From the IMG/VR virus record IMGVR_UViG_2740892212_000023: a stretch of 28,031 bases of DNA; one strand, written 5' to 3'. The DNA comes from a virus (taxonomy: Duplodnaviria; Heunggongvirae; Uroviricota; Caudoviricetes). Positions 20,669-24,532 of this stretch are shown here, one piece after another. The position numbers were made by a program, and so were the translations under genes. The notes beneath the pieces were generated by a model. That model was not told the origin of the DNA. It saw only the letters and a program-made list of their open reading frames with translations, and ran no database searches. Numbering within the stretch: position 1 is the first letter of the stretch; every line of letters starts with the position of its first letter.

Positions 20669-21118
20669 CTATTTTTTAAGGTAATAATCATCAAAATCGC
20701 AAGAAGCGGATATCACAGAACTTGAATCCATAGAAAAAGACAGGGTTTCGCATGCCTTTCCGGCCTGATGATATGCATGGATATCACCGGATACATATCC
20801 TCCTGTAGAAAACAACGATTTTTCACCGTTTTTTTCTACAAGAATGTGCTTATCTGAATCATTAATAAACCAAATGGAAATAGAGTGACTTTCGCCAAGG
20901 TCTGTTCTATTGAACACCTTAGGTTGGGTACCCTTGACAGCATTTTCGGCTCGCATAATCAGTTCAGCGCTTTTTTTGCTATTTTTTTGTTCTGTATAGA
21001 TTTTGTCTGCCACAAAATAAACAATGGCAATGGCTAACAAAGATAGGGAAATCAGCAATGCCTTTTTAATCAATTTTTTGGCATCCCTGTAAATCTCAAC
21101 TGATAATTTTTCACTCAC
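20669..21118 (-). CDS. Small membrane-anchored protein of unknown function (sieA-position moron)
   Basis: Minus-strand ORF 20669..21193. Likely start is GTG 21118 preceded by AAGGAGG; ATG 21193 is the alternative. One N-terminal TM helix (ALLISLSLLAIAIVYFVA) then a ~110-aa extracytoplasmic domain. AT-rich compared with the structural genes. Confidence 0.5.
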   Translation of the reverse strand: MSEKLSVEIYRDAKKLIKKALLISLSLLAIAIVYFVADKIYTEQKNSKKSAELIMRAENAVKGTQPKVFNRTDLGESHSISIWFINDSDKHILVEKNGEKSLFSTGGYVSGDIHAYHQAGKACETLSFSMDSSSVISASCDFDDYYLKK

Positions 21119-21183
21119 ACCAACCTCCTTAGTTTTGTGCAGGATACCAGATGATAATGTGTAGTTGGAGTAGCGCGGTTGTA

Positions 21184-21277
21184 ATGCAAGCATTTTGTTT
21201 TGGTTTTATGCTTGCTTGTATGTGTGTACAGTGCATATAATGCAAGCATACATCACAATAAAGGTGCTTGCATTATG
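21184..21277 (+). promoter_or_regulatory. Promoter with four copies of a 10-bp palindromic operator-like motif ATGCWWGCAT
   Basis: Motif at 21184-21193, 21208-21215 (partial), 21240-21249 and 21265-21273. -35 TTGCTT (21212-21217), 18-bp spacer, consensus -10 TATAAT (21236-21241). The copies overlap the -35, the -10/+1, the RBS/start of the downstream gene and the alternative start of the divergent gene. Confidence 0.55.
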
Positions 21278-22267
21278 ACTGAAAAGAAAAGTGGCGAAGG
21301 GAAAGCTAAGGGCGGTATCGCTCGCGCAAAGTCGCTGACTAAAGAGCAGCGTTCTGAAATAGCAAAGAAAGCAGCGGCTGCAAGATGGAAGGATAAACCA
21401 TTAATTGCTACGCATAAGGGATCGTTCCAGCATGAATTCGGGATTGATGTTGAGTGCTATGTGTTAAATGATGATAACAAAACTGCCGTTATTAGCCAGA
21501 GAGGCATGGGAGAAGCGATTGGTCTTGGCGAAGGTGGCAGCAGGTTGCCAAAGTTTATTCAGGGGAAAACTATTTCTCAGTATATCGGGCATGAATTAAG
21601 GGCAAAACTTGAAAATCCTCTTATTTTTCAATACAAACAGGCGGGCACGAACACTCCAGCTAATCCTGTAATACATGGCTACGATGTAACAATATTAATT
21701 GATTTATGTCGAGCAATCTCTAATGCTAAAGCTGAAGGTAAGTTGCTTTCCAGTCAGGAAGGGATTGCTAAGCAAGCCAGAATCATTATTGATGCATCAG
21801 CCAAGGCGGGCATTCAGGGGCTTGTTTATGCTTTGGCAGGGTATGACAGAACAAAAGAAGAGGTAATTCAAGCATATAAGCGATATGTTGCTGAAGAGGC
21901 TCGTGAGTATGAAAGAGAGTTCACCCCTGAACTTTATGAGCATTGGTATCGTCTGTATGGTATAGACAAACCAGTTAGAGGGCGACCATGGGCGTTTAAA
22001 TATCTTACGATAGATCACATTTATTACCCATTAGCCAGAAGTGAAGGAAAGGTATTTAATTTAGCAAAAACGTCAAAAGAAGAAAAAGGCAGCAAAAACG
22101 ATAAAATACACCAGTTTTTATCAGAGGTTGGAGTTAAGGCTCTTAGAACCCAAATAGGTAAGGTTACTGGTATTGCAATGGTTTCTGATACTCGAGAAGA
22201 GTATGAGAAATACATAGATGAAAAGGTTATTGGACAAAGAACCATAGACTTAAAAGATAAAGAATAA
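21275..22267 (+). CDS. Conserved phage protein with a basic N-terminus (…GGIARAKSLTKEQRSEIAKKAAAARW…); I attribute it to the P63C-domain family from memory
   Basis: ATG 21275 within ORF 21200..22267, giving 330 aa. The N-terminal motif and the following ATHKGSFQHEFGIDVECYVLNDDNKTAVISQRGM block resemble P63C-family proteins. Function unknown. AT-rich. Confidence 0.6.
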   Translation: MTEKKSGEGKAKGGIARAKSLTKEQRSEIAKKAAAARWKDKPLIATHKGSFQHEFGIDVECYVLNDDNKTAVISQRGMGEAIGLGEGGSRLPKFIQGKTISQYIGHELRAKLENPLIFQYKQAGTNTPANPVIHGYDVTILIDLCRAISNAKAEGKLLSSQEGIAKQARIIIDASAKAGIQGLVYALAGYDRTKEEVIQAYKRYVAEEAREYEREFTPELYEHWYRLYGIDKPVRGRPWAFKYLTIDHIYYPLARSEGKVFNLAKTSKEEKGSKNDKIHQFLSEVGVKALRTQIGKVTGIAMVSDTREEYEKYIDEKVIGQRTIDLKDKE

Positions 22268-22273
22268 GAAAAT

Positions 22274-22296
22274 CCCACCGTCAGGTGGGTTTTTTA
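22274..22296. terminator. Bidirectional intrinsic terminator between convergent genes
   Basis: Hairpin CCCAC-CGTCAG-GTGGG with a T-run on the + strand (22290-22296) and an A-run upstream that gives a T-run on the - strand. Confidence 0.6.
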
Positions 22297-22320
22297 TAAG
22301 GAGTAATCATGATTTACCCA

Positions 22321-22857
22321 TCAAACAACCCACCAGTTTGCCTGATTGGATGCCAGCCTTGCAGTTTTTATGGAATTAATTATGCCATGCTCAAGAGCCT
22401 TGTTAGCATCCAAAATGGTCGAGTCTGCTATCAGGGATGCCCACCTAATATGGGTTCCGATGTCGATATTGAACGTCTCAACGAAGCGATCAAGATCGTT
22501 ATCGAGGCATTTCCCGTACTCTCTCAATCTGGCATGGTCGGCGGCTGGGGAGGCAAAGCACCATAATAGAGGATGTAACAGGAATCTTGATAATGGGTTT
22601 GCGAAACGTTCTGAGCCAGCCAGGAAAACGATATTAGCTATGGATTCAACATTGCTTATGTTGTGAGTTCTAACGGTAACAGGGAGTGACTTAAGAAAGT
22701 TATACGCAGTAAAGCCAGCGGCAGTTTCCCCTCCCTGACTTGATATATGGATATTTAATTCAGTTGCGCCTTGAGATAATGCGGTGAGACAGTGGTTCTG
22801 AAGTTGCCCAACAGTGGCAGTGTTAACGGGGCATAAGAAATGAATTGTGTGCAGCAT
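22321..22857 (-). CDS. ClpP-family (S14-like) serine peptidase homologue, 178 aa
   Basis: Co-linear with the ClpP core: …NIHISSQGGETAAGFTAYNFLKSL…ISNVESIANIVFLAGSERFANPLSRFLLHP…DANKALEHGIINSI (ClpP: …YINSPGGVITAGMSIYDTM…[32 protein letters not shown]…SAPEAVEYGLVDSI). Candidate Ser, His and Asp triad positions are conserved. Its start overlaps the stop of the upstream Mnt-like gene. Confidence 0.7.
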   Translation of the reverse strand: MLHTIHFLCPVNTATVGQLQNHCLTALSQGATELNIHISSQGGETAAGFTAYNFLKSLPVTVRTHNISNVESIANIVFLAGSERFANPLSRFLLHPLLWCFASPAADHARLREYGKCLDNDLDRFVETFNIDIGTHIRWASLIADSTILDANKALEHGIINSIKTARLASNQANWWVV

Positions 22858-23105
22858 TATTTTTCATCCTTAGCATACATGGTCTTTAGCGTCTCAAGCA
22901 GCGCCTCTTTGAATTTGTCAGCTTCTTGCTGAGCAAATGACTCAACTGACTTTGGCGACCTATCTTCATCAATCGCGGCTTGCAAAATCATGACGATCTC
23001 GGAGTTAACAGAGCGACCATTTTTTGATGCTCTGACAGCAAGAGCCTCGCGTAAAGATTCAGGGATTCTTACCGTAGTTGGAGAAATTGACACACCCTTT
23101 GCCAT
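22857..23105 (-). CDS. mnt: Mnt-like ribbon-helix-helix repressor
   Basis: 82 aa from ATG 23105 (MAKGVSISPTTVRIPESLREALAVRASKNGRSVNSEIVMILQAAID…), compared with P22 Mnt …FRMPMEVREKLKFRAEANGRSMNSELLQIVQDAL…. Divergent from the arc/ant genes as in the P22 immI region. Confidence 0.75.
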   Translation of the reverse strand: MAKGVSISPTTVRIPESLREALAVRASKNGRSVNSEIVMILQAAIDEDRSPKSVESFAQQEADKFKEALLETLKTMYAKDEK

Positions 23106-23128
23106 ATCACACCTTTGGTATTCAATTT

Positions 23129-23219
23129 GATAGCAAAGTGTATGCAAAAAAATTTTGACTAGATATACTCACTTTGCTATCTTTTGTATTCGAAAAGAGT
23201 TGTTTGTGTGGAGGGTAAC
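23129..23219. promoter_or_regulatory. Divergent immI-like promoter/operator region
   Basis: Perfect 12-bp inverted repeat GATAGCAAAGTG (23129-23140) and CACTTTGCTATC (23170-23181). Between and after them: -35-like TTGACT (23155-23160), 17-bp spacer, -10-like TATCTT (23178-23183), then GGAGGG RBS before ATG 23220. Confidence 0.5.
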
Positions 23220-23391
23220 ATGGAGAAAGAAATAAGTAAGATTTTGGTAAGGATGCCGCAGTCGTTAAAGGATGCCGCAGTCGTTAAAGGATGCTATAGG
23301 TAGCAGGGCAAAGGAAGAGTGCAGGTCGTTTAACTCAGAGGTTATCAAGCGCCTGATAGACAGCTTGAAGAGAGAGGGGGTAATGGTATGA
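23220..23391 (+). pseudogene. arc: arc homologue (ribbon-helix-helix) disrupted by a 19-bp tandem duplication
   Basis: As it stands the frame is MEKEISKILVRMPQSLKDAAVVKGCYR* (stop at 23301). Removing one 19-bp unit restores MEKEISKILVRMPQSLKDAIGSRAKEECRSFNSEVIKRLIDSLKREGVMV, Arc-like (P22 Arc …RWPREVLDLVRKVAEENGRSVNSEIYQRVMESFKKEG…), ending in an ATGA overlap with the next ORF. Confidence 0.7.
23252..23294 (+). repeat. Tandem direct repeat, 2 × 19 bp (GATGCCGCAGTCGTTAAAG) plus a 5-bp partial third copy
   Basis: Units at 23252-23270 and 23271-23289, then GATGC at 23290-23294. The period is not a multiple of 3. Confidence 0.9.
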
Positions 23392-23591
23392 GTAAAGAAT
23401 GTTGTTTCTGCGGCATTAGCGAATCAGACGCTGATCAAACATACATTTACTCTAAAGAAACAGGTCGGATGCTGTGTAGTGACTGCGTGTTGGACATCAT
23501 AAGATACAAGCATCTTGGATGTTCTGCCAGCATTAGCAATATAGGTGAAGTATATGAAGGGAAAGATATAACTGATAGAGCAGAAAGTTGA
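23388..23591 (+). CDS. Small Cys-rich protein (putative zinc ribbon), 67 aa
   Basis: Two CxxC pairs (CCFCG…CSDC). ATG 23388 overlaps the stop of the reconstructed arc frame. P22 has no gene between arc and ant. Confidence 0.45.
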   Translation: MSKECCFCGISESDADQTYIYSKETGRMLCSDCVLDIIRYKHLGCSASISNIGEVYEGKDITDRAES

Positions 23592-23653
23592 AGCCCCAAC
23601 TGCGGTAACAGTCAGGGCTTCGGTATCAACAAATCGTCTTAGGAAATATTGAC

Positions 23654-24532
23654 ATGAAAAGTATAGCAAAGGCACAAAACGATTTCACCATCTTCAAATT
23701 CGGCGACAGTGAAATCCGCGTCATCAACAAGTGCGGTGAGCCGTGGTTTGTAGCTAAAGATGTTTGTGATGCTTTAGCTTTGACTAACTCACGCAAGGCG
23801 CTTACTGCACTTGATGACGATGAAAAGGGAGTAACTTTAAGTTACACCCTTGGTGGTGAGCAGAATCTAAGCATTGTGAGCGAATCAGGTATGTATACAT
23901 TGGTTCTGCGCTGCCGCGATGCAGTCAATAAAGGTTCAGTCCCGCACAAATTCCGCAAGTGGGTAACAGCAGAAGTTCTGCCTTCAATTCGCAAACATGG
24001 CGAGTATGTTAAAGGAAAGAAAACCACTGTTGAGGAAAGAACACCGCTACGCGATGCAGTAAACATGCTGGTAGGAAAGAAAGGACTTCGCTATGACGAT
24101 GCATACAATATGGTTCATCAGCGTTTTGGTATTGACAGCATTGATGAACTTTCAATTGAACAAATCCCGCAAGCTGTAGAGTACATCCACAGGGTAGTGC
24201 TTGAAGGTGAGTTCATCGGCAAACAAGAGAAGAAAACCAACGAGCTTTCTGCAAAAGAAGCAAACAGCCTTGTATGGTTATGGGATTATGCCAACCGCTC
24301 ACAGGCATTATTCCGCGAACTGTATCTGGCATTAAAACAAATTCAATCGAACTATTCCGGCAGATGCTACGACTACGGTTATGAGTTCTCGTATGTTATC
24401 GGAATGGCGAGAGATGTTTTAATCAACCATACACGAGATGTTGATATTAATGAGCCAGACGGACCAACGAATCTTTCCGCATGGATGAGACTTAAGAATA
24501 AAGAATTACCTCCTTCAGTACATAACTACTGA
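23654..24532 (+). CDS. ant: Antirepressor Ant (Bro-N-type N-terminal domain)
   Basis: 292 aa with …[32 protein letters not shown]…[16 protein letters not shown]…[18 protein letters not shown]…, the Bro-N/Ant signature, in the P22 ant position. Confidence 0.85.

Follow-up and report, generated by a model that had tools for sequence, protein, structure and literature searches.

A short ClpP-family peptidase gene coupled to mnt in a P22-type immunity-I module: a candidate second ClpP isoform for lysogens

What could a stand-alone ClpP-like peptidase be doing in the immunity-I (immI) region of a P22-like E. coli prophage, directly behind the repressor gene mnt? The question is raised by the IMG/VR virus record IMGVR_UViG_2740892212_000023 (Caudoviricetes), a stretch of 28,031 nucleotides that is referred to in its entirety as the window. 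Here, a first-pass annotation had pointed to an open reading frame (ORF) of 178 amino acids (aa) as a ClpP homologue with candidate Ser-His-Asp triad positions, co-transcribed with an Mnt homologue in the lysogen and a candidate for an undescribed superinfection-exclusion, anti-phage or host-proteostasis system. Our analysis places the product among short ClpPs related to ClpP1 of Pseudomonas plecoglossicida (PpClpP1), and the reading we favor, at somewhat less than an even chance, is that the prophage supplies a second ClpP isoform that pairs with or works beside the host ClpP, altering Clp proteolysis in lysogens.

We began from the identity of the protein, for which the proposed co-linearity with the ClpP core was borne out. 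The Pfam family CLP_protease (PF00574) is matched at 44.4 bits, above the curated cutoff of 20.2 (E 2e-11), with protein residues 24-165 falling on profile positions 37-180 of 182. Among solved structures, PpClpP1 gives the best match (PDB 9UXT, E 1.6e-35), and canonical ClpPs rank after it at about 1e-7. An AlphaFold (AF2) model, generated from an input alignment of 40 homologues, displays a mean pLDDT of 93.5, and superimposes in Foldseek with a TM score of 0.93 on the cryo-EM structure of PpClpP1 and of 0.83 on E. coli ClpP (1YG6). The similarity is well above chance, and the model predicts a member of the ClpP family with the alpha/beta head and handle fold present. Furthermore, the dN/dS ratio of about 0.08, calculated against homologues at 80% and 69% identity, indicates that the gene is under strong purifying selection.

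The catalytic machinery, on the other hand, agrees only in part with the triad that had been suggested. Ser72 and His95 align to Ser97 and His122 of E. coli ClpP (MAFFT) and are invariant across an alignment of 40 family members. The structure prediction recovered the S14-type fold, but the Asp is not at its canonical position: the column of E. coli Asp171 is occupied by Ser145 (HMMER alignment to 9UXT and MAFFT alignment to E. coli ClpP), and D144, one residue upstream of this column, varies between D, N, Q, K, S, A and T in the family. Within short ClpPs the Asp171 column is mostly Ser, Ala or Thr, with Pro in PpClpP1. As the canonical Asp position is not kept, short ClpP represents a Ser-His family, like PpClpP1, whose third catalytic residue has been reported to be non-essential (PMC12900304).

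Residue 1 of the phage protein corresponds approximately to residue 24 of mature E. coli ClpP, and the N-terminal axial loops that constitute the gate, as well as helix A, are therefore absent. Moreover, Y60, Y62 and F82 of E. coli ClpP, the hydrophobic pocket where ClpX, ClpA and the acyldepsipeptide ADEP dock, align to N35, H37 and S57. By these alignments, the protein is devoid of both the axial gate and the aromatic residues of the ATPase-docking pocket. At the other terminus, we observed an NWWV motif (residues 174-178) that is near-invariant in the family alignment, missing from canonical ClpP and modelled as a terminal beta-strand. Taken together, the alignments and the model predict a catalytically competent, N-terminally truncated ClpP paralogue, a short ClpP of the PpClpP1 type.

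How is the gene then tied to mnt? The mnt homologue runs from an ATG at 23103-23105 to a TAA stop at 22857-22859 on the minus strand, and its product matches Pfam Arc (E 9.5e-11) and P22 Mnt over the full length, including the C-terminal coiled-coil part (36% identity, E 7e-14). The ClpP-like gene starts with an ATG at 22855-22857 and ends, stop codon included, at 22321. As the first-pass annotation had stated, the mnt stop and this ATG overlap; the shared base, 22857, can be read directly in the sequence (TAATG). A terminator scan found no terminator between the two genes, while a hairpin terminator located 32 nt past the ClpP-like stop closes both the mnt-clpP-like transcript and that of a convergent P63C-domain gene. 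The gene overlap, the uninterrupted junction and the downstream terminator render the proposed co-transcription structurally plausible. Because the ClpP-like gene sits in the mnt operon, it should be made whenever Mnt is made, i.e. in the lysogen, and lysogens probably produce the ClpP-like protein along with Mnt. RNA-seq of the Gally prophage of strain LF82 was also considered as evidence and set aside: the primers are, by eye, unlike the mnt-clpP junction, and the data therefore show only that a related mnt is lysogen-expressed, not the ClpP-like gene. Induction of that related mnt in macrophages is kept as a lead only.

In the surroundings, mnt, arc, the sar RNA and ant all lie between homologues of the gene-16-type DNA-transfer protein and the tailspike. 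The region is a genuine P22-type immI module, congruent with the placement given initially, and the ClpP-like gene is a non-canonical passenger therein. Indeed, P22 harbors ORF59 and sieA downstream of mnt and no ClpP, and the ClpP-like protein is encoded in only 6 of 50,697 phage records, in agreement with the notion that a stand-alone ClpP falls outside the canonical P22 immI region.

To place the gene in a wider frame, we gathered about 150 related loci, drawn from both genomes and viral contigs, and searched 1.84 billion cluster representatives (50% identity) with a profile. The search yielded 281 short ClpP relatives at E<=1e-30, nearly all 180-200 aa long and with the match beginning within the first few residues, and 22,194 ClpP-superfamily hits at E<=1e-3. 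Judged from the sequences, short ClpP is a subfamily distinct from the wider ClpP superfamily. The mnt-ClpP pair is present in 146 of 5,426 complete E. coli genomes (~2.7%), all chromosomal prophage copies and none on plasmids, and is labelled in RefSeq as 'ATP-dependent Clp protease proteolytic subunit' and 'Arc family DNA-binding protein'.

Two groups of loci can be discerned. Clade 1, comprising loci with at least 97% identity to the ClpP-like protein and one member at 80%, displays an Mnt-like gene with the one-base TAATG overlap at all 46 loci where the upstream ORF could be called. The N-terminal, DNA-binding part of Mnt upstream of short ClpP exists in at least six highly divergent alleles, one of which appears to match the N-terminus of P22 Mnt. 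The ClpP-linked alleles nevertheless all end in ...ETLK(T/K)(M/I)Y(G/A)KD(E/D)K, encoding the ribosome-binding site of clpP. Similarity among the related loci breaks at the terminator (22254-22306) and in the last third of mnt (22877-22949), and the cassette is therefore made up of 'terminator, clpP, mnt 3' end'; by this mapping of breakpoints, the hairpin is the left recombination boundary. The clpP-mnt-arc-ant block is also found between tail genes L and K in the lambdoid phages PhiR12_1, PhiR12_4 and PhiR12_5, and the same Mnt allele stands elsewhere next to a Panacea-domain gene pair, with the ClpP gene missing. The gene-16-to-mnt interval behaves as a cargo hotspot. As separate observations, in other P22-like prophages of E. 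coli this interval holds a Panacea-domain gene and a 139-aa partner (locus L143, 3097-3964; locus L145, 2380-3247), and one prophage has a different, 69-aa ORF coupled to the mnt stop.

Clade 2, at 52-75% identity (Leclercia, Klebsiella, E. coli, Pantoea, Proteus and Chromobacterium), presents another picture. Here no ribbon-helix-helix (RHH) gene is present, and short ClpP stands alone on the strand opposite to the late operon, usually in the classical moron slot that separates the lysis cassette from the terminase genes; the Chromobacterium copy is found between tail-fibre and lysis genes. At the 41 loci examined, the long flanking ORFs are overwhelmingly on the opposite strand, and the position of the gene would imply expression independent of late transcription. 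Linkage to mnt is hence not a family-wide trait but limited to one enterobacterial clade: the survey for mnt-linked ClpP-like genes that had been called for recovered the 46 coupled loci of clade 1, whereas the relatives at 52-75% identity are unlinked. Across both clades, the loci show that short ClpP in Enterobacterales occurs exclusively as a prophage moron. In the E. coli prophages with a 52%-identical short ClpP, we also noted a co-oriented 182-aa gene 78 bp upstream (locus L125, 7374-7922; also L126 and L128-L132), with an RNKRSH (Rx4H, HEPN-like) motif and membership of PHROG 5483. It matches Abi_2 below threshold (14.6 bits vs 25.6), and could be a partner of short ClpP or an independent abortive-infection gene.

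These findings narrow the suggestion of an undescribed system. The protein is no orphan, considering that the short ClpP subfamily has a member, PpClpP1, whose biochemistry and structure have been characterised (PMC12900304) and that the gene is annotated in RefSeq. We found no description in the literature of a ClpP gene in the immI region or of short ClpPs as prophage morons, nor any paper dealing with this gene in phages, and Clp is not mentioned in the paper on the epsilon34 'ant moron' (PMC2629481). Thus, the protein type and the gene annotation are known already, while the mobile setting with predicted expression in lysogens and the role are undescribed.

What would such a protein do in the lysogen? 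PpClpP1 is the available guide. It forms a homotetradecamer (9UXT) whose pore measures 42.7 A, has low peptidase activity, binds neither ClpX nor ADEP, and alone degrades neither casein nor GFP-ssrA (PMC12900304). Together with the canonical ClpP, it assembles into a stable heterotetradecamer that is more active and uses ClpX via the canonical ring (PMC12900304). We propose that a short ClpP was captured as 'ant moron' cargo and welded to the mnt 3' end, so that in the lysogen it would share both transcription and translation with the Mnt maintenance repressor. By analogy with PpClpP1, the phage protein may assemble as heptameric rings or as tetradecamers whose pore is wide and ungated, and would be unable to recruit an AAA+ unfoldase itself. 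It could then form a hybrid tetradecamer with the host ClpP, altering ClpXP/ClpAP output, or alternatively act as a weak ATP-independent peptidase, the net effect being a putative lysogenic conversion of host Clp proteolysis. Of the three roles suggested at the outset, host proteostasis is the sole one with support, which is indirect.

Several points weigh against a second isoform acting on host proteolysis. The hetero-oligomerization is extrapolated from a homologue at 38-40% identity from the genus Pseudomonas, where both partners are chromosomal and co-evolved, and the third catalytic residue differs, being Ser in the phage protein and Pro in PpClpP1. The genes neighboring short ClpP in moron slots include exclusion, toxin-antitoxin and Abi-like genes, which fits defence equally well, and within the enteric clade the gene is strictly tied to the 3' end of mnt, which might point to a function specific to immI. 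Finally, expression of the ClpP-like gene in lysogens and the phenotype are both predictions. Generalized to the notion that temperate phages of Enterobacterales deliver a gate-less second ClpP for lysogenic conversion, as a hybrid with host ClpP or as an unfoldase-independent chamber, the proposal becomes less probable.

The foremost alternative is superinfection exclusion or another anti-phage function, in which a gate-less, ATPase-independent chamber, constitutively present in the lysogen, would break down the antirepressor of incoming phages or those of their proteins that are unfolded or being ejected. The gene occupies the slot downstream of mnt that holds ORF59 and sieA in P22, and that other E. 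coli prophages fill with the Panacea-domain gene pair or with small genes of another kind; the 182-aa Rx4H gene upstream of short ClpP in another E. coli prophage clade and the open pore of PpClpP1 (PMC12900304) point in the same direction. However, the Abi_2 match of that gene is below threshold, and the PADLOC-DB v2 defence models gave no match for the ClpP-like protein, its neighbors or four homologues. The surroundings of the Pseudomonas orthologues and the Massilia relatives look like housekeeping or stress genes rather than defence islands, and the low intrinsic activity of PpClpP1, with casein and GFP-ssrA left intact by the protein alone (PMC12900304), also argues against such a function. 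The exclusion and anti-phage claim is accordingly left with neighborhood hints and no direct support, and we regard it as unlikely.

Less probable still is a post-translational layer of the immI circuit itself, in which the peptidase would remove leaky Ant (or Arc or Mnt) and thereby stabilize lysogeny. That the clade 1 gene is always fused to the mnt 3' end, and has travelled with mnt, arc and ant as far as lambdoid siphoviruses, would be expected of such a component. Nonetheless, homologues at 52-75% identity are stand-alone morons far from mnt and ant genes, the same Mnt allele as well as the P22 immI region function without a ClpP-like gene, and a folded 292-aa Ant is unlikely to be degraded as there is no unfoldase-docking surface.

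The arrangement of an RHH gene followed by an overlapping downstream gene, together with a weak FitA-like_RHH Pfam match of the RHH protein, is also reminiscent of a type II toxin-antitoxin system, in which the RHH protein would be the antitoxin. Yet the RHH protein is a full-length Mnt homologue with a tetramerization tail, located in a complete immI module, the mnt homologue occurs without the ClpP gene, and short ClpP is without any RHH gene in most lineages; moreover, a ClpP fold is not known to us from any toxin family. With each partner widely occurring without the other, we rejected this reading as very improbable. The 'head maturation protease' annotation of phage phiv205-1 in GenBank, echoed by matches to PHROG 94 (E 7e-21) and NCBIfam NF045542 (49.3 bits), has next to no likelihood and was ruled out because the NF045542 score is far under its cutoff of 120, the gene sits in the mnt operon on the strand opposite to the late operon and has no scaffold or capsid-targeting extension, and a Leclercia prophage with a 75%-identical copy encodes a separate ClpP-type protease of 284 aa, located between portal and capsid genes, besides which P22-type procapsids are known to mature without a protease.

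If the second-isoform reading is correct, proteolysis in the lysogen would be reprogrammed, possibly with consequences for prophage stability, stress and biofilm phenotypes or exclusion of superinfecting phages. ClpXP and ClpAP control phage- and virulence-relevant proteins, such as replication proteins, repressor fragments, RpoS and SOS factors, and an alternative, phage-supplied ClpP ring, carried by ~2.7% of complete E. coli genomes, would give prophages a simple, unrecognized route to altered host proteostasis. Such 'protease-core hijacking' would constitute a class of prophage effector not described so far. The phage genes also place the recently solved 'short ClpP' class in a natural biological context, and the mnt operon offers a clean genetic handle on it. 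The whole-prophage phenotypes of phiv205-1 (biofilm, adhesion), among them the reported decrease in biofilm formation when the prophage is lost, serve as leads only.

The remaining elements of the region are collected in Table 1. The Pant-like promoter of the control region consists of TTGACT at 23155, a 17-nt spacer and TATCTT ending at 23183. It is accompanied by a perfect 12-bp inverted repeat (GATAGCAAAGTG at 23129-23140 and CACTTTGCTATC at 23170-23181, 29 nt apart) that brackets the -35 and overlaps the -10 element, and the arms are candidate Mnt/Arc operator half-sites, with a spacing that is unusual compared to P22. The consensus promoter scan of the control region returned no convincing site for Pmnt. 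The arc homologue contains a 19-bp tandem duplication at 23251-23288 (two copies of GGATGCCGCAGTCGTTAAA) that shifts the frame after about 20 codons. The duplication is private, being found in none of the about 150 related loci, with the single-copy version in nine. Arc is probably inactive in this prophage, a loss that should be tolerable only while Mnt represses Pant.

Between arc and ant, a 67-aa ORF with two CxxC pairs (23388-23591, plus strand; PHROG 7150, function unassigned) overlaps the stop codon of arc and terminates next to the sar RNA; at that position, P22 is without a gene. On the far side of the terminator lie two more cargo genes of the ant moron. The 355-aa P63C-domain protein is encoded at 21200-22267 on the plus strand (PHROG 2384, function unassigned). 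It is followed by a 174-aa ORF at the sieA position (20669-21193, minus strand) with a hydrophobic stretch, possibly a single membrane span. This ORF was considered as a SieA homologue and rejected, as it has no similarity to P22 SieA, and it gave no Pfam, PHROG or PADLOC match.

Table 1. Features of the mnt-clpP-like operon and the adjoining immI module, in window positions.
Feature	Position	Strand	Basis
Hairpin CCCACC-GTCA-GGTGGG, GC-rich, T-rich on both strands; bidirectional terminator	22274-22289		Terminator scan
ClpP-like gene (short ClpP-family serine peptidase, 178 aa + stop)	22321-22857	-	ORF call, Pfam, structure model, alignments
mnt homologue (82 aa + stop; Arc/Mnt ribbon-helix-helix repressor, C-terminal coiled-coil region)	22857-23105	-	Pfam, P22 Mnt comparison
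Shine-Dalgarno AAGGA of the ClpP-like gene	22867-22871	-	Within last mnt codons (..KDEK, stop), 9 nt upstream of ATG
Divergent control region with Pant-like promoter and 12-bp inverted repeat	23106-23219		Consensus promoter scan
arc homologue, frame disrupted	23220-23391	+	ORF call, Pfam, locus comparison
sar antisense RNA	23586-23652	-	Rfam RF00262, 74.5 bits (gathering 43), E 7e-15
ant antirepressor gene (Bro-N and P22_AR_C domains)	23654-24532	+	Pfam, PHROG

How does the locus compare to established systems? With the prohead ClpP-type proteases (NF045542, PHROG 94), the phage short ClpP shares the ClpP fold and the Ser-His catalytic residues, but it is found on the other strand, in another neighborhood and without a scaffold or capsid domain, and the comparison thereby corrects a misleading database annotation. 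With the P22 immI region, the locus shares the sar RNA and, from gene 16 to gene 9, the same arrangement and orientation of genes, and in both the cargo follows mnt on the strand that is expressed in the lysogen; this 'ant moron' is known to be in rapid flux (PMC2629481). In contrast to P22, where ORF59 starts about 100 bp after mnt, the ClpP-like gene is translationally fused to mnt and replaces ORF59 and sieA, with the P63C-domain gene and the unrelated 174-aa membrane-protein ORF further on.

Two-isoform ClpP systems are represented by ClpP1/ClpP2 of Listeria, ClpP1/ClpP2 of P. aeruginosa and ClpP1P2 of M. tuberculosis, while enterobacterial hosts have a single housekeeping ClpP. Congruent with such systems, the second-best structural match of the AF2 model is Listeria 4RYF, and the phage protein may, by analogy, be a less active second ClpP without full ATPase docking that pairs its ring with the canonical isoform. 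Whereas the host itself encodes both isoforms in those systems, here the second would arrive horizontally via a prophage.

The closest parallel remains PpClpP1, which is co-linear with the phage protein over the full length of about 180 aa (38-40% identity, TM 0.93) and has the N-terminal truncation, the conserved Ser-His pair and the non-Asp third position in common with it. It differs in that the third position is Pro in place of Ser145, and the conserved C-terminal NWWV motif distinguishes the phage protein. The possibility that PpClpP1 is itself prophage-borne was rejected, the orthologues being chromosomal in Pseudomonas, while the phage gene is prophage cargo in an mnt operon; the paper on PpClpP1 makes no mention of phages (PMC12900304). 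The Pseudomonas orthologues (loci L152-L155) have KGG-repeat general-stress genes and a DUF6555 gene as constant neighbors, a setting that hints at a stress or stationary-phase role for PpClpP1 not discussed in the published work, and Massilia relatives (~40% identity) have housekeeping-looking genes directly upstream. Given these chromosomal contexts in Pseudomonas and Massilia, the phage genes appear to derive from the capture of a physiological second ClpP isoform, and the ancestral role of short ClpP would be physiological rather than defensive.

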